The translations under genes were made by a program, and so were the position numbers. A model generated the notes under the pieces. The model had not been told where the DNA came from. It was given only the letters and a program-made list of their open reading frames with translations, and made no database searches. This document shows positions 5,232 through 60,566 of a DNA stretch of 64,000 nt, piece after piece. The stretch is from an uncultured Gammaproteobacteria bacterium. Its GTDB lineage: Bacteria > Patescibacteriota > Patescibacteriia > UBA1558 > 2-01-FULL-52-15. Position 1 is the first letter of the stretch. Each line of letters opens with the position of its first letter. The stretch is taken from the NCBI GenBank assembly GCA_964402565.1, contig CAYOCJ010000002.1:234982-298981 (forward strand), given 5' to 3'.

Positions 5232-5306
5232 GGCCCTATCATCTAATGGTTAGGATATCAGGTTTTCATCCTGGAAATCGGGGTTCGATTCCCCGTAGGG
5301 CTACCA
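5232..5306 (+). tRNA. tRNA-Glu: tRNA-Glu (anticodon TTC), CCA encoded
   Basis: Cloverleaf folds by hand. Acceptor GGCCCTA/TAGGGCT with a G1-U72 wobble. T-arm CGGGG-TTCGATT-CCCCG. Anticodon arm TCAGG-TTTTCAT-CCTGG with TTC at positions 34-36. Discriminator A then CCA. Confidence 0.85.
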
Positions 5307-28910: not shown

Positions 28911-29151
28911 AGTTCGAGTAAATAACGTGAGCAGTGTACGTTTCGACGGGGCTTTTGTCAATCCAATTGCTACGGCGAGCATCAAAGATGTTTTTTGAAT
29001 TTGAGCCGTCACGACGGCGCTTGACTGATTCATAAGAATACAGTATTCTGCAACGTTCATTGCTAGTGTTCAAACGAACCAAAGCCACGATCCTTTACAA
29101 GACCAATAAAGCTACGAAACGCATCAATACCGATGCCAGAGAGGATGAGTC

Positions 29152-30468
29152 ATGAATCAAATCAGACCGGACACGCGGAAACCGGTGAAAGCCTCGGAGC
29201 TCGCCGGTATGGCGGGACGGTGTGTCGAGGTTACCGGCTTTGTCCATCAGATCCGTAAGGTCGGTGGACTCCACTTCGTACTTCTCAGGACCAATGACTC
29301 GGTGATTCAGTGCACCAACGAGCCTGCGGAGAGCACGGTTGATCCTGCTCGCTACACGGTCGGCAACTATGTTGTTGTTCGCGGTGTCGTGAGAGCTGAA
29401 GAGCAGGCCCGTCATGGGGCCGAAATCGTGCTCAGCGAAATCGATGTGCTGACTTTGCCGACAGCTTTGCCGCCGTTCGCTCTCAACAAGAAGGAACTTA
29501 AAGCCGAACTGGGGGCTATACTGGACTATCGTCCGGTCAGTCTCCGCCACTCGAAGCAGCGGGCAATCTTCAGAGTCCAGGCAGCTCTGGCTCAGCTGTT
29601 TCGCGAAGCACTGCTCGCAGTTGGGTTCACCGAGATCCATTCACCCAAAATCGTCTTCGCTGGAGCCGAAGGCGGCGCAAACGTCTTTAAGCTCGACTAC
29701 TTCGGGGAGACGGTCTGTCTTGCACAGAGCCCACAGTTCTACAAGCAGATGATGGTCGGGGTTTATGGCCGAGTGTGCGAGATCGGGCCTGTTTTCAGGG
29801 CTGAGAGCCACTCGACATCGCGCCATCTGAATGAGTACATGTCGCTCGACTTGGAGATGGGACCGATTGCAGGTTTCACGGATGTCATGGCGGTCGAGGC
29901 ATATGTCATTCAGCACATGCTTTCTCGGATCAGCGAGCTGTGTCCGCAGGAACTGGAGTTGCTCGAAGCGAAGGTTCCGAAGATCGAGTCGATTCCCGCC
30001 ATAAGGATGTCCGAAGCGCTTGATATCGTCGGCAGATCCAGAACCGAGTATGATCGGACGGATCTTGACGCTGAGGGCGAACGGCTCGTCTGTGGGCATG
30101 TACAGGAACAGACCGGAAGCGAATTTGTCTTCGTGACCCACTATCCGCGGTCGAAGCGGCCGGTCTACGCCATGGACGATCCCGAGGATCCGGAGCTGAC
30201 ACTCAGTTTCGACTTGCTCTTCAGGGGGCTCGAGATCACGACTGGTGGCCAGCGGATTCACGGGTACGACGAGCAGGTTCAGAAGCTCAAAGATTTTGGC
30301 ATGAAGCCAGGCCAATTCGAGAGCTTCCTGCTCATGCACAAGCACGGCATGCCGCCGCACGGCGGCCTCGCCATCGGACTGGAACGCCTGACGATGCTTC
30401 TGCTGGGACTGTCCAGCGTCAAGGAGACGAGTCTCTTCCCGAGGACCGTCGATCGCATCACACCGTAG
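29152..30468 (+). CDS. aspS: Aspartate--tRNA ligase, archaeal/eukaryotic type (AspRS2-like), in a GC-rich insert
   Basis: 438 aa. N-terminal OB fold (VEVTGFVHQIRKVGGLHFVLLR), QSPQFYKQ aspartate-recognition motif, motif 2 FRAESHSTSRHLNEY, motif 3 GMPPHGGLAIGLERL, C-terminal ...LFPRTVDRITP. Collinear with Pyrococcus/Thermococcus AspRS over its whole length. Local GC clearly above backbone. Confidence 0.85.
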   Translation: MNQIRPDTRKPVKASELAGMAGRCVEVTGFVHQIRKVGGLHFVLLRTNDSVIQCTNEPAESTVDPARYTVGNYVVVRGVVRAEEQARHGAEIVLSEIDVLTLPTALPPFALNKKELKAELGAILDYRPVSLRHSKQRAIFRVQAALAQLFREALLAVGFTEIHSPKIVFAGAEGGANVFKLDYFGETVCLAQSPQFYKQMMVGVYGRVCEIGPVFRAESHSTSRHLNEYMSLDLEMGPIAGFTDVMAVEAYVIQHMLSRISELCPQELELLEAKVPKIESIPAIRMSEALDIVGRSRTEYDRTDLDAEGERLVCGHVQEQTGSEFVFVTHYPRSKRPVYAMDDPEDPELTLSFDLLFRGLEITTGGQRIHGYDEQVQKLKDFGMKPGQFESFLLMHKHGMPPHGGLAIGLERLTMLLLGLSSVKETSLFPRTVDRITP

Positions 30469-30487
30469 CGGAACTTGGTCTTGTTTT

Positions 30488-30524
30488 CAGGGGCAGCCTG
30501 CGTGGTTGCCCCTGTTTCTTTTTC
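30488..30524 (+). terminator. Rho-independent terminator after aspS
   Basis: aggggca-N11-tgcccct followed by GTTTCTTTTTC. Confidence 0.55.
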
Positions 30525-30537
30525 AAATGAACCAGCG

Positions 30538-30546
30538 TGGTATAAT
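30538..30546 (+). promoter_or_regulatory. Extended -10 promoter element (TGgTATAAT) for the paralog-B operon, near-leaderless
   Basis: gtggtataat about 14 nt upstream of ATG 30560. No SD. Confidence 0.4.
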
Positions 30547-30559
30547 AACGTAACTAAAT

Positions 30560-31669
30560 ATGAAATTAGGACCGTACATCACACAAGATAACAAGATTGC
30601 ATATCGAGGAAACAAAGTACGCAAAGGTCTTTCAGAAGTACGGAATATAAAACCGCGGGGTCTTGAAAAGCGTCACATTGAACTGAAGCATGATGCGCGT
30701 TACTGGCCGGCGGCCATGAAAATCTGGGACGGAACGTATCAGTCGGTTAACGAGTTTATGAAATCGGACAAAGCCCTTTTGTTTGATCTTCCGGTTACTA
30801 CCAGGATGATCTCATCGCCGGGTGCTCTGACCGGAACCATTCCTTCTGATGTGCATCCCTTCCGGATAAAGATGTTTGGCAAGGAGGTATTTCTTACCCA
30901 GTCCTCACAGTTTTATCTTGAATTTGCGATAACCAATCCCGCCGTTAAGAAGACATACTGCTGGGAAAAGAGTTTCCGGCGCGAGCGGGCTGATTTTCGT
31001 CACCTGCCGGAATTTCATCATATCGAATATGAGGCACGCGGTAATCTGAAAAGCATTATCGATACCCAGACGCGGTTTATACAGTATTTGATCGCGTATT
31101 TACTGAAGCATCATCGCCGCGATCTCTCGGTATTCCTTGATGCAGCGGAAATCAGAAACCTGCAAAAACTGTCGCAGCTTAAGAAGTTTGAACAGATTAC
31201 CTTTGAAGACGCGTTCGCCAAATTGTATGAGGCTACCGGGCTGCTGCGATACCGGAAGCCATCAATTAAGCACTTTACTGCGTATGAGGAAATTCTGCTG
31301 ACAGAGATTATCGGAAAACCGGTATTTGTAACGCACTATATCAGCGATGAAGTTGCGTTCTATCATCAGAATGATCCACGCAATAAAAAGCTGGTATTGA
31401 ATGCAGATTTTCTGTATCCTGGGTACGGAGAGCTGATCGGGAGCGGCGAGCGTATACATACGCGGGATCAGATACGAAAGAAAGCACGGCACTTTGAGCT
31501 GAACATGAAGGATTATAAGCCGTATATCGAATCAAGATCAGTCTCAGGAGTGACTGTGCACAGTGGCTTTGGCATGGGGATGGAGCGATTCGTACAGGCG
31601 GTCCTTCACCTGCCATTTATATGGGACGCCAAGCCCTTTGCACGAGTTGATGGATTTAATTATCCGTAA
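30560..31669 (+). CDS. AspRS/AsnRS catalytic-core paralog lacking the anticodon-binding domain (AsnA / AS-AR-like aspartyl-adenylate-forming enzyme)
   Basis: 369 aa. Class II core only: FLTQSSQFYLE (QSPQ-type Asp motif), motif 2 FRRERADFRHLPEF, GSGERIH, motif 3 GFGMGMERFV. No N-terminal OB fold. Host-like GC. Confidence 0.7.
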   Translation: MKLGPYITQDNKIAYRGNKVRKGLSEVRNIKPRGLEKRHIELKHDARYWPAAMKIWDGTYQSVNEFMKSDKALLFDLPVTTRMISSPGALTGTIPSDVHPFRIKMFGKEVFLTQSSQFYLEFAITNPAVKKTYCWEKSFRRERADFRHLPEFHHIEYEARGNLKSIIDTQTRFIQYLIAYLLKHHRRDLSVFLDAAEIRNLQKLSQLKKFEQITFEDAFAKLYEATGLLRYRKPSIKHFTAYEEILLTEIIGKPVFVTHYISDEVAFYHQNDPRNKKLVLNADFLYPGYGELIGSGERIHTRDQIRKKARHFELNMKDYKPYIESRSVSGVTVHSGFGMGMERFVQAVLHLPFIWDAKPFARVDGFNYP

Positions 31670-31673
31670 ATAT

Positions 31674-32714
31674 ATGTTTAAGAAACTAAATAAACCACCA
31701 CGACTGAAGGAGGGCGATACCATTGGTCTTATCAGTCCTTCGGCGCCCCTGGCCGGTCTAGTCCCGCACCGGACGGATCGTGCTGTGGCTATGCTGGGAG
31801 GGTTGGGATTTAACGTTCTTGTGGCGAAAAACAGTAAAAAGATTACTGACTATACTGCTGCATCACCGGAAGAACGTGCAGAGGATATTCATGAGATGTT
31901 TTCAAATGACGATGTAAAGGCAGTCATCTGCTTTATAGGCGGGGATCACAGTAATCAGATTCTGCCTCATATCGATTTTGATTTGATCAGAAAGAATCCG
32001 AAAATATTTATCGGGTACTCAGATCCGACGGTTCTGCATTTTGCATTTCTTACTGCCGGTAAGATGGTTAGCTTCTATGGTCCGTCGGCTTTGGTTCAGT
32101 TTGCTGAGAATCCAAAAGTGCTTCCATATACACTGGAATACTTCAAAAAAGCAGTTATGAGCACGGATCCGGTTGGCCCTGTTATGCCATCGGAGCAGTG
32201 GACGGACGAAGTGCTAGACTGGTTTGAAAAAAAGGATCTTGAGCGACCACGCAAGATGAACAGCAACCCAGGGTGGAAGTGGATTCAGTCCGGTAAAGCA
32301 GAGGGGCCGATTATCGGTGGCTGTCTTTCATCGGCCATGCATCTTAAAGGAACAAAGTACTGGCCGGAACTGCAGGGATCAGTTTTCTTCTTCGAAACCT
32401 CTGAGCGGAGCAGTGATTTTACTAAGGGGCAGGAGATGGCTGATATAGATGCTGATCTCGCAGATCTTAAGAATATGGGAGTATTTGAAAAAATCAGCGG
32501 TTTGATTGTTGGTCGTCCCTTTGGGCTCGGCAATGAGGAGTGTGAAAAGTTTATGGAGCTGATTACGTCGTACACGAAACCTTATTCATTCCCTGTTCTT
32601 ACGGGTGTTGATGTTGGCCATACCGATCCGATGATTACCGTACCGCTCGGAACGAACGTTTCGCTGGATTCAGAAAAAAATGAATTTAGCTTTAATGAGT
32701 CCGGCGTCAGATGA
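31674..32714 (+). CDS. Peptidase S66 family protein (LD-carboxypeptidase LdcA / microcin C immunity MccF family)
   Basis: GDTIGLISPSAP N-terminus, Ser nucleophile in IFIGYSDPTVLH, His in VDVGHTDPMITVPLG. In-frame upstream alternatives (31650 ATG, 31563) overlap the previous gene. Confidence 0.75.
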   Translation: MFKKLNKPPRLKEGDTIGLISPSAPLAGLVPHRTDRAVAMLGGLGFNVLVAKNSKKITDYTAASPEERAEDIHEMFSNDDVKAVICFIGGDHSNQILPHIDFDLIRKNPKIFIGYSDPTVLHFAFLTAGKMVSFYGPSALVQFAENPKVLPYTLEYFKKAVMSTDPVGPVMPSEQWTDEVLDWFEKKDLERPRKMNSNPGWKWIQSGKAEGPIIGGCLSSAMHLKGTKYWPELQGSVFFFETSERSSDFTKGQEMADIDADLADLKNMGVFEKISGLIVGRPFGLGNEECEKFMELITSYTKPYSFPVLTGVDVGHTDPMITVPLGTNVSLDSEKNEFSFNESGVR

Positions 32715-33079
32715 AAAAAGAAGAAAACGAGGCAGTAACCGGCACACATGTTATCGGTGAGGTCTACACCGGGGATGTTTCAACGCTGAATGGACTTTCT
32801 GATATAGAGAATAAAATACTGAATATTGTGAAGAAGAATAAGCTTCAGAGCCTTCATTCTTTTTTTTATCTTTTTCCTGAAGGAGGATTTACGGGCATGA
32901 TATCACTGGTTGAGTCTCATATATCGCTGCACACATGGCCTGAATATAAGTATCTCACGCTGGATGTTTATCTCTGTGACTACTCACGTGATAACTCCAA
33001 GACAGCGGAAGTGGTATTTGCTGAGATTGCTGAACTCTTCAGCCCGTCGCGTATAACAAAGCAGGTAATGAAACGGTAA
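32711..33079 (+). CDS. speH: S-adenosylmethionine decarboxylase proenzyme, small pyruvoyl type (SpeH/SpeD class)
   Basis: 122 aa. THVIGEVYTGD...FFYLFPEGGFTGMISLVESHISLHTWPEYKYLTLDVYLCD matches the AdoMet_dc family including the ES processing site. ATGA overlap with the upstream gene. Confidence 0.75.
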   Translation: MKKEENEAVTGTHVIGEVYTGDVSTLNGLSDIENKILNIVKKNKLQSLHSFFYLFPEGGFTGMISLVESHISLHTWPEYKYLTLDVYLCDYSRDNSKTAEVVFAEIAELFSPSRITKQVMKR

Positions 33080-33080
33080 T

Positions 33081-33884
33081 ATGTCAGTATCAAAGAAGGA
33101 TATAGAACAACTGTCATATGTCGAGCTCATGGCTTTTCTGGATGAGGTAAACCGTCCGCCCGGGGGTAAGGACTCAGTGAGGCGCGTTGTGCAAAATACC
33201 TTTCTCACACCATCATCCAAAGCTCTCGACGTTGGTTGTAATACCGGATATGTTACTTTTGAAATCGCACATCTTGTTGGTTGTAAGGTTACCGGGCTAG
33301 ATATCGACTCATCAATGATAAAGACTGCGGAGAAAAACCGAAAGAAGGACACGCATGCACAATTAATCAGTTTCAGAAAAGGCGATGCAATGCGGCTGCC
33401 GTTTAAGACCCGTACATTCGATTTGGTTATGTCAGGAGGATCGACTGCCTTTGTCGATGATAAAATAAATGCTATTAAGGAATATAAAAGGGTAACAAAG
33501 CAGTGGGGTTTTGTAGCAGACGTGAATTTTTTCTATCACACAAAACCGCCGGCAATACTTTTGAAAAAATTGAATGCGTTACTGGACATTAACATCCAGC
33601 CCTGGGACAAGTCGTACTGGCTGAAGATATATGAAGGAGCAGACCTAGAGCCGTATTATGAATACGAGGGTAAGATGAGCAAGGTATCGAATAGACAGGT
33701 GAGCGAATACTGCGATGCGATGATCAGGCACAGAAAGCTTAATCCGGCAGTAAAGAAGATAATGTACGCACGCTTATCCGAAGCTATGACGTTGTTTAAC
33801 GAAAATCATAAGTATCTTGCTTATGGTGTCTTTGTGTACAGAAACAGACCTGAGAAAGAGCAGGTTTCTTTATTTGGTGCATAA
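33081..33884 (+). CDS. Class I SAM-binding methyltransferase-fold enzyme with ~110-aa C-terminal extension (not SpeE-like)
   Basis: ALDVGCNTGYVTFEIA motif I, VTGLDIDSSMI post-I, FDLVMSGG motif II. Lacks the spermidine synthase GGGDGG / DSTDP motifs. Starts 1 nt after the speH stop. Confidence 0.65.
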   Translation: MSVSKKDIEQLSYVELMAFLDEVNRPPGGKDSVRRVVQNTFLTPSSKALDVGCNTGYVTFEIAHLVGCKVTGLDIDSSMIKTAEKNRKKDTHAQLISFRKGDAMRLPFKTRTFDLVMSGGSTAFVDDKINAIKEYKRVTKQWGFVADVNFFYHTKPPAILLKKLNALLDINIQPWDKSYWLKIYEGADLEPYYEYEGKMSKVSNRQVSEYCDAMIRHRKLNPAVKKIMYARLSEAMTLFNENHKYLAYGVFVYRNRPEKEQVSLFGA

Positions 33885-33889
33885 AATGA

Positions 33890-33916
33890 AGAGAGGTTCC
33901 GTTTTGGAACCTCTCT
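33890..33916. terminator. Convergent hairpin (11-bp stem) between the methyltransferase and paralog-C genes
   Basis: agagaggttcc-gtttt-ggaacctctct. Contains the stop codon of the minus-strand gene. T-rich on the minus side. Confidence 0.45.
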
Positions 33917-35213
33917 AGAGAAGGTCGCTGCGCGCGTCTCTGGGGAACAGGATCGTCTCCCTGATATGCGGCAGACCGAGAATGAGTTGTATCAGACGCT
34001 CGATGCCAATGCCTACGCCGGACATTGGCGGCAGCGCATGGCGCACCGCGTTAATGTAGAGAGGGAAGTTGCCAGGGTCCAGTCCGCGTAACTGCATCCT
34101 CGTGAGTAATTCAGTCAGGTCGGTGACGCGTTCGGCGCCGTCGGCGATGTCGGTTACCCGCGGGTGCCACAGCTGAAAGTCGAAGCAGGTCAGCCTGCCA
34201 CCGACGTCTCTGGCTCGTGAGTAGAAGGCTTTTGATTCCGCGGCTTGGTCGATGATCCAGAAGAAGGAACCGAAGCGTTTCCTGATTGCTAAGAGAGCGT
34301 TTTTAGGCACGGTTGAGGTTGAACCCCATTCCAGATCTACGCCCCCACTGTTCAGATAGGAGACCAGATCGCTGTATGTGATTACCTCGAAGTTTCTCAG
34401 GTCATCAAAGCTTACTTCCAGTAGCGCCAGTTCATCAGCGCATGAGCCGGATACTTCATCCAGGATGCAGTTGATCATCAAGTTGATCATACGGATCATG
34501 TCATCACGGTCCGCGTACGCGGAGGTGATATCCAGTACCGTGAACTCGCTTAGGTGAATGCTGGTATGTGACTTGGTCGCCCGGAAGCACGACCCGATCT
34601 CGTACACCCGGTCCAGGTTGCCGCCGAGAACTGCCATGTGGTACAGCATGTTGCTGAGCGACAGGTAGGCCTTTCGGCCAAAGTAGTCGACCGGAAATGC
34701 TTCTACCGGGCCCTCAACGGATTCACCCACGATGCTTGGTGAGGAAACCTCAACGAATCGCTGAGTGGTAAGAAAGTCCCGGATCGCTTTGAGCACCGCG
34801 CTCTTTACCCGGAAGATTGCAGTCACCCGGGGGTTTCTGAGATCCAGGTGCCTGTTCTGCAGGCGAAGCACGCGTGCAGTCGTGGAGTCGATGCTCGGGG
34901 GCGTTTCATCCGGTTCGGTCAGCACCTCGATACCGGCAAGGCCGAGTTCATATCCGAGAATACCGGATTTTACGATCTTATTGGAGCGGAATATTCCGTC
35001 TGCGACGATCACTGACCCTTTTTGAGGAACAGCCATGGCTGGGCTGTCGATGACACACTGGATGCATCCTGCGGGTGTCACCAGATTCAGAAACGTAAGG
35101 CTCTTTCCTGCTTTTCTGATCTGCTGAACCCGGCCGGTAAACCGGACGTGCTTGTCGGCAAATTGAGGCGGATTCAGGAAACACCGCCTCATCTCTTCTA
35201 TGAGACTGATCAC
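33915..35213 (-). CDS. Divergent AspRS/AsnRS-family paralog, full length with OB fold but substituted motif 2 (GC-rich insert)
   Basis: 432 aa. GTG start with AAGGAGA SD 5 nt upstream. OB fold VRFTGRVQQIRKAGKSLTFLNLV. Core reads YLSLSNMLY (in place of QSPQ), motif 2 FRATKSHTSIHLSEF (Glu to Thr, Arg to Ile versus FRAE..RHL), motif 3 GVGIGIERLIQLILGLPHIRETILFPRD. High GC. Confidence 0.75.
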   Translation of the reverse strand: MISLIEEMRRCFLNPPQFADKHVRFTGRVQQIRKAGKSLTFLNLVTPAGCIQCVIDSPAMAVPQKGSVIVADGIFRSNKIVKSGILGYELGLAGIEVLTEPDETPPSIDSTTARVLRLQNRHLDLRNPRVTAIFRVKSAVLKAIRDFLTTQRFVEVSSPSIVGESVEGPVEAFPVDYFGRKAYLSLSNMLYHMAVLGGNLDRVYEIGSCFRATKSHTSIHLSEFTVLDITSAYADRDDMIRMINLMINCILDEVSGSCADELALLEVSFDDLRNFEVITYSDLVSYLNSGGVDLEWGSTSTVPKNALLAIRKRFGSFFWIIDQAAESKAFYSRARDVGGRLTCFDFQLWHPRVTDIADGAERVTDLTELLTRMQLRGLDPGNFPLYINAVRHALPPMSGVGIGIERLIQLILGLPHIRETILFPRDARSDLL

Positions 35214-35293
35214 GGCGTTTCTCCTTGTGAAGGTACGGGGTTATTGGAACTTTGTAATTTATGAAATTTTAGCACTTATGTCAATGATCGTAT

Positions 35294-35311
35294 GAGCCGT
35301 CGCGACGGCTC
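35294..35311. promoter_or_regulatory. 18-bp perfect palindrome GAGCCGTCGCGACGGCTC in the paralog-C upstream region
   Basis: Seen directly. Lies ~80 bp upstream of the GTG start of the minus-strand paralog. Confidence 0.35.
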
Positions 35312-35558
35312 ACCTCGGGTATGTTAAGCGCAGCAAAAATTATCCTACCACTTTTTTGGCGCTACAGATCGTACTATTCTGTCTTGTTGATTGCGGCTTA
35401 AAATGATGCGCTTGTAGTGAGGCGCTGGAAGATTAATCGTGAAGGTAAAGGGTATGAGCTTTTCGGATTCATATCGTGCTGCGTCCTGACCATCCCAAGA
35501 GAAAATGACATAGATTTGGCTAGATAACGAGTGCTAGTGTACGAGCCAAAGTAGCTTT

Positions 35559-35574
35559 TGTCAAACGTTTGACA
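35559..35574. promoter_or_regulatory. 16-bp perfect palindrome TGTCAAACGTTTGACA (operator candidate, embeds TTGACA -35 hexamers on both strands)
   Basis: Seen directly. ~70 bp upstream of the 35645 ATG, in the divergent region between paralog C and the 138-aa GC-rich ORF. Confidence 0.4.
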
Positions 35575-35644
35575 TGCGGCTCAGGCTAATGCTAGGTTGT
35601 GCATACCAGTCCTTTAACCCAAACCGAGTGAACAAGGAGGCTTT

Positions 35645-36061
35645 ATGCGCCAGCAAGAGCAGTTGCTCGAAGCAGCGGCGCATAAGTGCCGCAGTTTAAT
35701 GAGCGAGATCGCTGATACGATCATCGAGATCGAAACACAGCGGGCGAAAGCCGGCGTGACCATGGCCGATATGAGGCGGCCTATGCATGATCGAAGCGAG
35801 GCGCTTCTCGAATTCTCTGAGTGCGAAGAGGCTATCGCCATGCTGCAGCGTTTTCACAGTGAATCCGTCGTTGCATCTGAAGTGCTGTTTCGCGGCTCAG
35901 CAGTCGCATTCGTCACCTTCATCGAGGATTTCGAAGAAGCGATACAAGAACGTCAGGAGCGCTATCTGCGCCTGGGATTTCGGTCCACTGACCGGTTCAA
36001 CCGTTTTCTCTCCCTGCTGCGCTCTGCCAGCGTCATCGCTGATCCGAAAGAGCGAAACTGA
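35645..36061 (+). CDS. Hypothetical protein (138 aa), GC-rich
   Basis: AAGGAGG SD 6 nt upstream. Helical, acidic. Followed by terminator cccctgtc-gtct-gacggggg + TTTTCGTTTG at 36074-36103. Confidence 0.55.
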   Translation: MRQQEQLLEAAAHKCRSLMSEIADTIIEIETQRAKAGVTMADMRRPMHDRSEALLEFSECEEAIAMLQRFHSESVVASEVLFRGSAVAFVTFIEDFEEAIQERQERYLRLGFRSTDRFNRFLSLLRSASVIADPKERN

Positions 36062-36155: not shown

Positions 36156-36737
36156 ATGAAATTATTTACTGACATCAGCAAGGAACTGAAAGAGTATGAG
36201 AAAGCGCGTGAATCCGTGATCCGCGTTTCACGAGAGTATCTCACTGCTTCGAAAAGCATCATTTTCCTTTGTCATGAGAATAAACTTGATGAAGCTCTGC
36301 GGCAGCTTTCATTGCTCACGAAAAATATGATAGCCAGTGAGCGCGACTTGAAAAAGGCTTTACTCAAAGCGCAAAAAACTTTTTCACTGTATGAAGAAGG
36401 TTCATGGAATTCAGCAGTCGAAGAATATCTCGAGGCCTGGTTTTTCTGTCAGTTTTTGAAAATTGGTAAACTTGCGGCACCAAAAATCAATCCTCCGGCT
36501 CATATCTATATCGGCGCACTTTCTGATTTTACCGGAGAAGTCGTGCGTCGTGCAGTTCTGAAAGGCGCGGATAAGGATGTGAAGACGCTTGAAAAGTATC
36601 GCAAGGTCATTGCGGAAGTTGTTGCATTCATGATGCCTTTGTATCTCACAGGACAGAATAGACAGAAATTCGATCAGGCGAAAAGAAACCTCAAGTCAGT
36701 GGAGGAAATTTTGTACGAGGTAAAGATACGGATGTAG
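36156..36737 (+). CDS. Translin-family protein (putative)
   Basis: 193 aa all-helical. C-terminal motif YIGALSDFTGEVVRRAV fits the translin/TRAX Y-x2-G-x2-D-x2-GE-x2-R signature. Length similar to archaeal translins. Confidence 0.5.
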   Translation: MKLFTDISKELKEYEKARESVIRVSREYLTASKSIIFLCHENKLDEALRQLSLLTKNMIASERDLKKALLKAQKTFSLYEEGSWNSAVEEYLEAWFFCQFLKIGKLAAPKINPPAHIYIGALSDFTGEVVRRAVLKGADKDVKTLEKYRKVIAEVVAFMMPLYLTGQNRQKFDQAKRNLKSVEEILYEVKIRM

Positions 36738-39371: not shown

Positions 39372-39818
39372 ATGCAGCCAGGGATTGATTATATCGGAGT
39401 GAATGTCGGGTTCATTTGTCATGATGGCAAAGGAAACATTTTACTTCATCTGAGAAGTGATAAGACGCGAGATGAGCATTTTACCTGGGATGCAGGCGGC
39501 GGTCAGGTAGAATTTGGAGAAACGCCCGAGCAGGCTGTGATCCGTGAAGTTTTGGAGGAATATGGCTGCACTCCACTGCGTGTAGACCATATTGCGCAGC
39601 TTACCTTGCTCCGAGAGCATGAAGGAATGCCAACACATTGGCTCGCAAATATTTTTGCAATCAAGATAAACCCTGATGATGCAAAGATTATGGAGCCGGA
39701 GAAAAATTTAGAAATGAAATGGTATGCATTAGACGCGCTACCCGAGAAGCTGCACACTGCGCCGAAAAATATAATTGATAATCATAAAAATAAATTATTA
39801 ATGTATATTTTTTCATGA
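39372..39818 (+). CDS. NUDIX hydrolase
   Basis: Nudix box GGGQVEFGETPEQAVIREVLEEYG. Confidence 0.8.
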   Translation: MQPGIDYIGVNVGFICHDGKGNILLHLRSDKTRDEHFTWDAGGGQVEFGETPEQAVIREVLEEYGCTPLRVDHIAQLTLLREHEGMPTHWLANIFAIKINPDDAKIMEPEKNLEMKWYALDALPEKLHTAPKNIIDNHKNKLLMYIFS

Positions 39819-40591
39819 ACGACAAACTCGTCCTCGACCTTGAAACCAAAAAAACATTTGAAGAAGTGGGCGGCTACCATAACGCTGATAAACTTGGCAT
39901 TTCTTTGGTCGGCGTATATTCATATGCACGAAATCAGTATCGGGCATTTCGTGAAGAAGAATTCAAAGAATTGAAAGAATGGCTGGAAGCATCAGACCTC
40001 ATTATCGGTTTTAACAGCAAACATTTTGATTTTACCGTGCTGCAGCCCTATTATCCGAAATATGATCTGTCGAAGTTGCCGCACTTGGATATTTTAGAAG
40101 AAGTTGTCTATGCATTAGGACATCGTCTGAAACTGGAGAGTATTGCACAAGCCACGCTCGGACACGGCAAATCAGGAGATGGTCTGGATGCGATAAAATA
40201 TTTCAGAGAAGGCGACTGGGCAAGTCTCGAGAAATATTGTTTGGACGATGTGCGTGTCACGAAGGAAGTGTATGATTATGGCGTATCGCATGGCTATATC
40301 TGGTATGCGAATTATGGGGTGAAAGAAAAGATACAGGCGCGCTGGTCAAAGGGTGAGACCGTAGAGGATATTGTGAAACGCGCTGTCACCAAAGGCCTGC
40401 AGCTGGAAATCGATTACATTGATGACGATGGTGCAGCGACTACGAGAAAAATAGATATTCAGAGCGTTTCAGGCAATAAGATCAAAGCGTATTGCCATTT
40501 GCGCCAAGGATTGCGGTATTTCGACCTTGCAAAAATTACGAAGGCGGCAGATACTGGACCTATGCAGAGTTTCCAGAAAAGTTTGCTTTAA
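39815..40591 (+). CDS. DEDD-family 3'-5' exonuclease domain protein with C-terminal extension
   Basis: LVLDLETKK (Exo I D-x-E), IIGFNSKHFDF (Exo II), YCLDDVRVTKEVY (Exo III-like). ~80-aa C-terminal domain. Confidence 0.6.
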   Translation: MNDKLVLDLETKKTFEEVGGYHNADKLGISLVGVYSYARNQYRAFREEEFKELKEWLEASDLIIGFNSKHFDFTVLQPYYPKYDLSKLPHLDILEEVVYALGHRLKLESIAQATLGHGKSGDGLDAIKYFREGDWASLEKYCLDDVRVTKEVYDYGVSHGYIWYANYGVKEKIQARWSKGETVEDIVKRAVTKGLQLEIDYIDDDGAATTRKIDIQSVSGNKIKAYCHLRQGLRYFDLAKITKAADTGPMQSFQKSLL

Positions 40592-59756: not shown

Positions 59757-59833
59757 ATATGGTTATAAGCTTTCGTTCATTTCCATTTTCCCGCATGCCT
59801 TGAGCATGTGGCGTATGTAACAAGGAGCTAGCG

Positions 59834-60421
59834 ATGAAATCCGTCAGAGAGTTGATCTCGATCATCAAGGCCGAGCTTGCTGTCATGCAGACTCTGTTCC
59901 CGCCGATTTCGGTGGGGCCCGTCCGCTGCGACGGTTTCACGGCCGAAGAACTGGAACTCGCGTTCCAGACCGAGGCGATGTATGTGAGTACGTTGCACGA
60001 ACGCGAGCAGCGAGAGCTGCGCGAGAAGAGCGCCAAGAAGCTCGAGCGCATCCTGGCCAGCCTCCGTCAGCGGAAGAACAACTTCCTGTCGCGGATGGCC
60101 CAGGCCTTCGCCGTGAAGGCCGAGCGGATCAACGTCTACGACATGGCGAAGTACTACGGTCTCGGGGACGACGAGGAAGCACAGCAGCAGTGGCAGATCA
60201 TGAAAGCTTCGCTCGCGGTGATCCTGAAGATCAACAACCTGCTCGTCACGAAAGACATGCCGGCCAAGGCGAGGCTCGAAGCCGCGTCGGTGCTGTACCA
60301 CGAAGGCCTCAACGAGGTCGCCGGTCTCCGCGATCGGTTCGAGCGGTACTGCGTCGGTCGGATGCAGGCTGTGCAGCTGCTCCGAGCTTTCGACATGCCG
60401 GACAACCGCCAGGTCGCTTAA
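59834..60421 (+). CDS. Hypothetical protein (195 aa), first gene of GC-rich cassette
   Basis: Uninterrupted ORF in 60%+ GC DNA with good SD. Helical, acidic, no motif. Confidence 0.6.
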   Translation: MKSVRELISIIKAELAVMQTLFPPISVGPVRCDGFTAEELELAFQTEAMYVSTLHEREQRELREKSAKKLERILASLRQRKNNFLSRMAQAFAVKAERINVYDMAKYYGLGDDEEAQQQWQIMKASLAVILKINNLLVTKDMPAKARLEAASVLYHEGLNEVAGLRDRFERYCVGRMQAVQLLRAFDMPDNRQVA

Positions 60422-60443
60422 CAGCGGCCACGAGGAGCCTGTC

Positions 60444-60566
60444 ATGACTTCCAGATCCATTTTCGGAGCGATCCTCATCCTCGCAGGTACCCTCGCGGGT
60501 TACCTGTTCCACTCAAACCACGTGAGCCGCAAGGCTCAGGCAGTCAAGGTCTCGGCCAAGAACTGA
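60444..60566 (+). CDS. Small single-TM peptide (40 aa)
   Basis: GAGGAG SD 6 nt upstream. MTSRSIFGAILILAGTLAGYLFHSNHVSRKAQAVKVSAKN. Confidence 0.4.
   Translation: MTSRSIFGAILILAGTLAGYLFHSNHVSRKAQAVKVSAKN

Follow-up and report, generated by a model that had tools for sequence, protein, structure and literature searches.

Genes and signals of the locus

This study deals with a cluster of three class IIb aspartyl-/asparaginyl-tRNA synthetase (AspRS/AsnRS)-family genes arranged around a tight four-gene operon, a candidate gene cluster for an inhibitor of tRNA synthetases, at positions 29152 to 35213 of a 64,000-nucleotide stretch of contig CAYOCJ010000002.1 (the window, in what follows) from an uncultured bacterium that GTDB places in the Patescibacteriota. 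The operon encodes a synthetase-like catalytic domain (the core), an S66 peptidase, a pyruvoyl S-adenosylmethionine (SAM) decarboxylase (AdoMetDC) and a protein of methyltransferase fold (MTase), and it lies between two longer synthetase-family genes, paralogs A and C (Table 1).

Table 1. Genes and signals at the locus, in window coordinates
Feature	Position	Strand	Assignment and basis
aspS, AspRS (paralog A)	29152-30468	+	Archaeal-type non-discriminating; tRNA-synt_2 and OB (oligonucleotide-binding) fold; NF003483, 498 bits against a cut-off of 353
Intrinsic terminator 3' of aspS	30488-30524	+	11-bp stem (30488-30514) with 8 GC pairs, then T-run TTTCTTTTTC
Extended -10 of the operon, TGgTATAAT	30538-30546	+	Direct reading of the sequence
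Core, AgnA-like class IIb catalytic domain	30560-31669	+	tRNA-synt_2 only (residues 36-362), without OB domain
S66 peptidase, MccF/AgnC5-like	31674-32714	+	Peptidase_S66 and S66C (PF02016, PF17676)
AdoMetDC, pyruvoyl SAM decarboxylase	32711-33079	+	AdoMet_dc; TIGR03330, 86.9 bits against a cut-off of 75.65
MTase, AgnB1/MccD-like, class I methyltransferase fold	33081-33884	+	Fold match; homology to AgnB1 and MccD
Hairpin (terminator) between the convergent MTase and paralog C genes	33890-33916	.	11-bp stem, - strand
Paralog C, Asp/AsnRS-like	33915-35213	-	tRNA-synt_2 and weak OB match; below every NCBIfam cut-off
Promoter-like site 5' of paralog C	35256-35284	-	TTGACA-17-TAAATT, 10/12 matches; consensus match only

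All six open reading frames (ORFs) were recovered where the initial annotation had placed them, in the same arrangement of three class IIb genes around an operon. Its description of both flanking genes as full-length archaeal-type enzymes with OB folds holds for A; in C the OB match is weak. The close packing that it reported was also found, with an ATGA overlap between the S66 and AdoMetDC genes and a single nucleotide between AdoMetDC and MTase, and we add as a small correction that 4 nt lie between the core and S66 genes (S66 start ATG at 31674), or that the two overlap by 20 nt (start ATG at 31650). The bracketing terminators and the extended -10 element of the operon were confirmed too, the latter being missing from the consensus scan list because it has no -35 element. 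As for the proposed mosaic composition, A (GC content 0.573, z = 2.5) and C (0.554, z = 2.0) do stand out from the gene mean of 0.479 (standard deviation 0.037), the operon genes having values of 0.41-0.46, and it is only the view of A as an insert that fails, as set out below.

The operon core resembles AgnA of agrocin 84

AgnA, encoded by the agrocin 84 plasmid pAgK84, is a truncated AsnRS without anticodon domain and the proposed phosphoramide-forming enzyme of agrocin 84 biosynthesis (PMC4392301, PMC8323819). The core of our operon and AgnA share 32% identity over 290 aa (E 2e-38), and when AgnA was queried against 2106 ORFs of the related loci described below, the window core was the top match. 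Both proteins possess a family-specific loop, T..SSP..SD, that is not found in AsnRS; in the window core T81, S85-S86-P87 and D97 fall within two insertions before the QSSQ motif.

Beyond AgnA, AsnRS is the nearest relative of the core in sequence as well as in structure. AsnRS came out closest in a sequence search of the PDB, with solved AsnA structures far lower, and a fold search with an AlphaFold2 model (pLDDT 82; a short N-terminal hairpin followed by the catalytic domain) gave AsnRS structures as all of its top matches, AsnA structures lying outside the first 50. The likeness includes the pocket type and intact motifs 2 and 3. However, the core has neither the anticodon-binding OB domain of AsnRS nor a score near the AsnRS equivalogs (NF003037, 187.3 bits against a cut-off of 414; TIGR00457, 162.6 against 342.6), and the two insertions set it further apart. 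With AsnA (E. coli AsnA and the archaeal AS-AR enzymes) it has in common a tRNA-independent class II core of the kind that forms an aminoacyl-adenylate, but it stays at 86-102 bits in the archaeal AsnA models NF005052-NF005055, whose cut-offs are 309-389, and linkage to MccD- and MccF-like genes is no feature of AsnA. In Pfam only tRNA-synt_2 and tRNA-synt_2d were matched, with no AsnA family and no PF01336 match.

The residues of catalysis are invariant over 77 loci, namely those of motif 2 (R140, E142, H148) and motif 3 (R343) together with D283, E291 and R298; by alignment with AspRS residues, we take D283 and E291 to bind Mg and R298 to be the side-chain-binding arginine. Since motif 2, motif 3 and the acidic residues are all kept, adenylation should persist. 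The pocket is of the AsnRS kind, with QSSQ, a Leu where AspRS has Lys198 and a Glu where it has Asp233.

Proteins of this family, of about 369 aa, are common across bacteria of the Candidate Phyla Radiation (CPR) and archaea of the DPANN group and fall into three subfamilies: one with Q114/H334, to which the window core belongs, a DPANN one with E114/T334, and one with D114, that of AgnA. Cores of the AgnA type also occur in clusters that are otherwise homologous to that of the window (identity of 45-53% for the C-like protein, 56-58% for S66 and 56% for MTase in L087), so the core subfamilies are interchangeable. Taken together, the core is predicted to be a tRNA-independent adenylating enzyme that builds an acyl-phosphoramidate nucleotide.

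The S66 peptidase is MccF-like

In a phmmer search of the PDB, the S66 protein matched MccF-family structures with E values of 1e-60 to 5.6e-54; the best match annotated as a muramoyltetrapeptide carboxypeptidase (6uuk) reached 1.4e-25, and LdcA of E. coli and of Pseudomonas aeruginosa 3e-12 and 8e-10, respectively. Its identity is 35% with E. coli MccF and 32% with AgnC5, the S66 protein of pAgK84 (each E 2e-61). The S66 fold and the Ser-His-Glu triad are common to LdcA as well, the triad (S118, E243, H311) being conserved in 51 of 51 aligned family members, with Asp for Glu in 5. Yet the window protein scores 88.6 against the cut-off of 378 in the LdcA equivalog NF008424, and its family is also present in archaea without murein. 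The linkage of S66 to the other genes is conserved in these archaea, in which murein recycling cannot explain such a peptidase. Trp186 of E. coli MccF stacks on adenine (PMC8323819), and 49 of the 51 aligned sequences have a Trp at this position, as do the window protein and AgnC5. The enzyme is thus predicted to be of MccF type and to cleave the acyl-N bond of an adenylate mimic, which might serve self-protection or possibly a biosynthetic step.

AdoMetDC and the MccD/AgnB1-like enzyme

AdoMetDC holds the stretch VESHISLHTWPE, which contains the Glu-Ser site of self-cleavage. Its gene lies directly 5' of the MTase gene in the window and in L050, L087/88, L092 and L097, the two being about 3 kb apart in L074, and AdoMetDC would, by prediction, be the source of decarboxylated SAM for the MTase-fold enzyme.

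For the latter, the top PDB match was MccD of the microcin C pathway (5FCD; residues 8-232, E 5.8e-20, the runner-up having 8.6e-13), in an alignment reaching well past the Rossmann core. Identity to E. coli MccD is 27% (E 3e-25) and to AgnB1 30% over the full length (residues 3-265, E 7e-51). A translated search of plasmids with this protein led to pAgK84, the agrocin 84 plasmid, on which AgnA is directly followed by AgnB1 and then by the immunity leucyl-tRNA synthetase (LeuRS) AgnB2, with the S66 protein AgnC5 on the same plasmid. The MTase lies outside the tRNA and rRNA methyltransferase families, MccD being its best solved and AgnB1 its best annotated relative. From these homologies, the enzyme is predicted to alkylate the phosphate of the phosphoramidate with an aminopropyl group.

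A housekeeping AspRS and a degenerate partner

Paralog A keeps QSPQ, K198, R216, E218, D233, E235, D354, E361 and R368. It belongs to a continuous family of CPR homologues with 55-61% identity (Buchanan-, Falkow- and Nomurabacteria), which grades into Firmicutes enzymes, and two of its close relatives are found between genes for sigma70 and ThiF, with no such cluster there. A is the ordinary housekeeping AspRS of the lineage, and the operon and C simply adjoin aspS. Both the idea of a GC-rich foreign insert and that of a resistant spare copy were rejected for A in view of the continuous CPR family and the two relatives in another housekeeping context. As a separate observation, in a related CPR genome (L093, 2579-3988) a pair of bAvd and reverse transcriptase genes, resembling a diversity-generating retroelement, lies upstream of the housekeeping aspS.

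Paralog C is of quite another kind. It scores 281 against the cut-off of 353 in the non-discriminating AspRS equivalog and bears the substitutions Q192L, P194N, Q195M, K198H, the motif-2 changes E218T and R224I, E235T, D354Q and E361D, at nine positions where a single residue is present in at least 94% of 108 canonical archaeal-type AspRS (99-100% for seven of the nine). Throughout its clade QSPQ is changed to L-S-N-M, and W30 and R46 of the OB fold are replaced as well. Close homologues are extremely few, only six (39-53% identity) among 5.8 billion proteins, followed by a gap down to ordinary AspRS at 34%, and all five with visible context are located inside clusters of the present type. Because C has lost conserved catalytic residues, a working resistant AspRS is unlikely and this role was rejected; C would rather be a dedicated partner of the cluster, for specificity, biosynthesis or sequestration.

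Different degenerate synthetase-like partners turn up in other loci, again placed between core and MTase. A second dead class IIb clade (Q192K, Q195E, D354R, E361S, R368E) directly follows the core in L021, L029, L032, L038, L039 and L040, and a family like prolyl-tRNA synthetase (ProRS), akin to AgnC1 of agrocin 84 (hhalign probability 97.6%, E 3.6e-12), is present in 25 loci. Elsewhere there are proteins like histidyl-tRNA synthetase (HisRS) and, in L097, truncated genes like alanyl-tRNA synthetase (AlaRS); some loci have instead apparently intact genes for LeuRS, methionyl-tRNA synthetase (MetRS), or AsnRS- or AspRS-type enzymes.

Recurrence of the cluster in other genomes

A scan of one genome per species for the core yielded 80 loci. 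Linkage was counted by tblastn with the window proteins (77 mapped loci) and by de novo clustering of every ORF lying up to 7 kb from the core (n = 81), the criterion for an MTase homologue being tighter in the mapped set; the MTase family was thus found in 65 of 81 loci by the looser clustering and in 43 of 77 by the tighter criterion. Within the mapped set, S66 was present in 48 loci, an enzyme of detoxifying type in 60, and a second synthetase-like gene beside the core in 54. Core, MTase and S66 occur together in most of about 90 loci from CPR, DPANN, haloarchaea, an actinomycete and plasmids, the hosts including Parcubacteria-type CPR, Woese-, Nano-, Pace- and Micrarchaeota, Natrinema, Haloarcula, Actinomadura, a metagenome-assembled Paenibacillus genome and others. 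The bacterial contig L097 has the identical order core-S66-AdoMetDC-MTase, and in L087/L088 all six genes are found again, a C-like and an AspRS-like one among them. The same gene sets in unrelated genomes show that the arrangement in the window is not due to chance, and the module had previously gone unnoticed in the many ultrasmall bacteria and archaea that carry it.

The accessory genes of these loci point in the same direction. All 15 HIT proteins neighbouring a core, each in a related locus and none in the window, carry ExxxxxHxHxK in place of HxHxH, the motif by which the MccH clade of phosphoramidases is defined; these enzymes cleave aspartamide-adenylate (PMC7157772). Such a HIT protein usually takes the place of S66 in loci without it, S66 being present in 4 of 15 HIT loci against 44 of 62 others (Fisher p = 0.0025), an anticorrelation expected for alternative solutions to one task. 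In addition, S51 peptidases, the family of MccG (PMC9239234), were found in four loci, N-acetyltransferases (GNATs) aligning to the C-terminal acetyltransferase of MccE in two, and pyridoxal 5'-phosphate (PLP) decarboxylases aligning to its N-terminal domain in four, which are other than those with AdoMetDC-MTase; one or the other kind of decarboxylase goes with the MTase. With MccH, MccG-family, MccE-like, MccF-like and MccD-like genes around the core, the whole accessory toolkit of microcin C is present, and the S51, GNAT and PLP decarboxylase families are known from experiment to act on aspartamide-adenylate (PMC7157772, PMC9239234, PMC8323819).

Only one of the 81 loci has a ThiF gene, at a distance of 7.5 kb from its core. 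A 327-aa family without Pfam match lies beside the core in L033, L041, L044, L046, L051, L055, L056 and L070 and co-occurs with the MccH-type HIT protein in seven of these eight loci; relationship to the AgnC4 amidohydrolase was considered and rejected (probability 0.5%). Radical SAM neighbours compared weakly with AgnC7 (probability 39%).

Comparison with agrocin 84 and microcin C

The agrocin 84 cluster (agn, pAgK84) is matched by the truncated AsnRS, the MTase-fold enzyme and the S66 peptidase (AgnA, AgnB1 and AgnC5), by a degenerate synthetase-like partner (AgnC1 in agn, the ProRS-like family in other loci), and by the presence, next to the synthesis genes, of a synthetase gene of the targeted type. 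On the other hand, agn comprises 17 genes, with tailoring of sugar, deoxynucleoside and dihydroxy acid, the exporter AgnG and a proven resistant LeuRS, while the window has four to five genes, AdoMetDC in addition, a catalytically dead partner of AspRS type and no exporter.

With the microcin C cluster (mcc) the window has in common the MccD-like enzyme, the MccF-like S66 peptidase and, by prediction, a decarboxylation step for an aminopropyl group and AspRS as target, and the related loci add MccH-motif HIT proteins, S51 peptidases and relatives of both MccE domains, the N-terminal decarboxylase and the C-terminal GNAT. It differs in that the enzyme forming the nucleotide is E1-like in mcc and a synthetase core here; moreover, decarboxylation would act on SAM itself by way of the pyruvoyl AdoMetDC, whereas in mcc it acts on the transferred carboxypropyl group. 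A gene for the precursor peptide MccA, the ThiF-type MccB and the MFS pump MccC are all missing from the window. No mccA-like short ORF ending in Asn was found in the intergenic regions of 29000-35700, and the sole tiny ORF between aspS and core (MNQRGIIT, 30527-30553) has a C-terminal Thr and overlaps the -10 element. Queries with MccB, MccC, MccE, AgnC1, HIT and S51 proteins, as well as with representatives of the PLP decarboxylases, the ProRS-like family, radical SAM proteins and APH, gave no tblastn match in the 64-kb window beyond the operon, and Rfam and tRNA scans returned nothing but a tRNA-Glu at 5232. The locus is therefore not an mcc cluster, being without MccA and MccB, and the curated scores and domain tests given above equally exclude that it is a matter of AsnA, AsnRS or LdcA. 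Our searches of the accessible literature retrieved no earlier account of mcc- or agn-type clusters in CPR or DPANN and no biochemistry of AgnA or AgnB1 after 2021.

A putative pathway to an aminoacyl-adenylate mimic

On the grounds of homologies, active-site conservation and conserved linkage, we consider it rather probable that the operon (30560-33884) together with C constitutes a compact cluster of the agrocin 84/microcin C type for an aminoacyl-adenylate mimic that inhibits a tRNA synthetase, one that does without precursor peptide and MccB. The initial annotation had suggested a pathway for an aspartyl-nucleotide-type inhibitor of AspRS, and the results speak in its favour: the S66 protein groups with MccF and not with murein LdcA, by PDB search, equivalog score and the Trp at position 186; the MTase has MccD and AgnB1 as closest relatives and no known tRNA or rRNA methyltransferase family; the core is no lineage-wide AsnA and is linked to MTase and S66 across domains of life; and related genomes carry the genes clustered, some of them in identical operon order. 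Two details of the suggestion had to be given up, since AgnA, a truncated AsnRS, is closer to the core than AsnA/AS-AR, and since the flanking paralogs, one housekeeping and the other catalytically degenerate, are not spare or resistant targets.

The scenario might run as follows. The AgnA-like core would form a non-hydrolysable N-acyl phosphoramidate nucleotide, the most economical chemistry being one with Asn and ATP, as MccB performs it on a peptide. AdoMetDC would furnish decarboxylated SAM, from which the AgnB1/MccD-like enzyme would move the aminopropyl group onto the phosphate. The MccF-like peptidase, judging by homology, would cut the acyl-N bond of intracellular compound and so shield the adjoining housekeeping AspRS, paralog A, which is the likely target. 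Paralog C would mark AspRS as the specificity of the system, either helping, in the manner of AgnC1, with biosynthesis or specificity, or binding the compound; its derivation from AspRS and the position of the cluster beside aspS point to this specificity. The product would then probably be an aminopropylated aspartyl-adenylate mimic with built-in detoxification.

Obviously, several observations weigh against this scenario. Agrocin 84 has a 5' phosphoramidate without any alkyl group, though AgnB1 is the closest annotated relative of the MTase. The core pocket does not change with the adjoining synthetase-like gene, not even with the AlaRS-like ones beside the otherwise identical operon of L097, which sits uneasily with the assumed acyl selection and an Asp-type product; the idea that the pocket follows the type of the neighbouring synthetase was rejected for this invariance. 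The search for an exporter drew a blank in the window, and a hydropathy scan of the related loci brought up no recurrent family; only 15 of 81 have any polytopic membrane protein close to the core and 66 have none, which is unlike mcc and agn. Some HIT loci also carry the MTase, and the aminopropylated compound is not cleaved by MccH-type enzymes (PMC7157772). Finally, N-acyl phosphoramidate formation is only proposed even for AgnA, and the reaction of AgnB1 is likewise uncharacterised (PMC8323819).

Some of these same observations would suit other explanations. The invariant pocket and the exporter missing from most loci could be expected if the module made a nucleotide or aminoacyl metabolite that is no antibiotic at all, for instance one that serves in signalling, as a cofactor or for modifying a protein or RNA as EpmA does with EF-P, with the hydrolases recycling or regulating it; the core, like EpmA, is a class IIb catalytic domain without anticodon domain, and pathways of secondary metabolism are few in the hosts, which are symbionts with reduced genomes. 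Nevertheless, we regard this as clearly unlikely, in that every recurrent accessory family (MccF, MccH-motif HIT, S51, MccE-like GNAT and decarboxylase, MccD/AgnB1) has been characterised from clusters directed at tRNA synthetases (PMC7157772, PMC9239234), the clustered neighbours include no conserved acceptor protein, and the patchy, phylum-spanning distribution is that of accessory traits. A window without exporter and precursor peptide might also be a mere resistance island that guards against foreign microcin-C-like compounds and synthesizes nothing, and stand-alone MccF and MccH homologues that confer resistance are indeed common (PMC8323819, PMC7157772). There is little likelihood of this, however, as core, MTase and AdoMetDC have no known role in resistance and yet are the tightest-linked genes, often translationally coupled, and their pAgK84 homologues are production genes (PMC8323819).

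The tight coupling of synthesis and detoxification in one operon, along with the mostly exporterless loci, may recall a metabolite-based toxin/antidote or abortive-infection device, in which an unexported mimic would halt translation upon a phage or starvation trigger and the hydrolase would be the antidote. A helix-turn-helix gene lies directly upstream of the core in L095 and about 2.5 kb upstream in L096, and Lrp-type regulators occur in nine loci. But the PADLOC defence models gave only a single weak, generic methyltransferase match, of the MTase to mad2, and phage-related genes were not found flanking the locus in the window; the idea is reached by inference throughout, and we give it only a small chance. 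As to unrelated housekeeping genes that happen to stand side by side (AsnA-like Asn synthesis, murein LD-carboxypeptidase, decarboxylated SAM for polyamines and a generic methyltransferase), every Pfam family concerned does have housekeeping members and PGAP labels AgnA itself as 'asparagine synthetase A'. This is hardly credible in view of four translationally coupled genes in a recurring order, a linkage kept even in murein-less archaea, AsnA scores of at most 102 bits where 309-389 are needed and an LdcA score of 88.6 where 378 is, and the nucleotide-stacking Trp retained by S66.

Returning to the adenylate mimic, one may think of a far wider picture, doubtful as it must appear at present: that of a large unrecognised family of minimal adenylate-mimic modules, mostly exporterless, in CPR and DPANN, scattered free-living prokaryotes and plasmids. 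A constant AgnA-type core would make the common N-P nucleotide scaffold and a swappable degenerate synthetase paralog (AspRS-derived here; AlaRS-, ProRS/AgnC1-, HisRS- or Asn/Asp-type elsewhere) would set the target, the compound being used on the host by cell contact or on the cell itself to arrest translation. In such modules the MccF-like peptidase may assist the core, adenosine 5'-phosphoramidate being released in the known MccF reaction. If true, this would reveal the core chemistry of agrocin 84 biosynthesis.

Agrocin 84 is a commercial biocontrol agent, and the route to its phosphoramidate warhead has been unsolved since the plasmid was sequenced. The window offers a four- to five-gene version of the agrocin core, small enough for direct reconstitution, and dozens of related loci join the enzyme sets of agrocin and microcin C. 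Should the product be confirmed, it would mean a new enzymatic route to non-hydrolysable aminoacyl-adenylates, a natural set of inhibitors with swappable synthetase specificity, and, for CPR bacteria and DPANN archaea, the first small-molecule weapon or self-arrest device predicted to target translation.

Variant clusters and other features of the window

Several of the related loci deserve mention in their own right. In L097 (7001-12916) the core is 60% identical to that of the window, and the operon is followed by two AlaRS-like genes (tRNA-synt_2c, 435 and 408 aa), with no AspRS-like partner. Plasmid NZ_CP053558 of Exiguobacterium sp. Helios (L084, 6840-16804) bears, in this order, genes for an AlaRS-related protein, an AgnB1-like MTase, an AgnA-like 'asparagine synthetase A', a glycosyltransferase, an ATP-grasp protein, a deoxynucleoside kinase and a full AlaRS. 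On this mobilizable plasmid they form a candidate cluster for a mimic of alanyl-adenylate. An agrocin-like set was encountered in archaeon Dive96_bin10.467 (L009, 10001-18762), where the core is accompanied by an MTase 47% identical to AgnB1, S66, a MccH-motif HIT protein, LeuRS and an AgnC1-like protein.

Among cultured haloarchaea, two Natrinema loci (L071 and L072, 6023-14030) and one of Haloarcula (L074) combine core and MTase with an ABC transporter, and both Natrinema loci also have an S66 peptidase and a LeuRS gene adjoining the core. A second, divergent LeuRS has been reported in Halobacteriales, on which the Natrinema gene may bear. In L089 (12779-15898), a cluster of C-like, core, S66 and MTase genes is followed by those for a radical SAM protein and for one of the ABC-F type, with ABC_tran_Xtn and two ABC_tran domains; ABC-F proteins include translation factors and ribosome-protection proteins.

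Elsewhere in the window, the GC peak (0.605, z = 3.4) is at 59828-60478, where long ORFs run on both strands and neither Pfam nor Rfam gave a match. At 39815-40591 (+), one protein joins an RNase_H_2-type exonuclease domain to a WYL domain. Two genes downstream of C, at 36156-36737 (+), there is a Translin-family protein (PF01997, E 2.9e-16), a family known mainly from eukaryotes and archaea that is met here in an apparent Patescibacteria genome.

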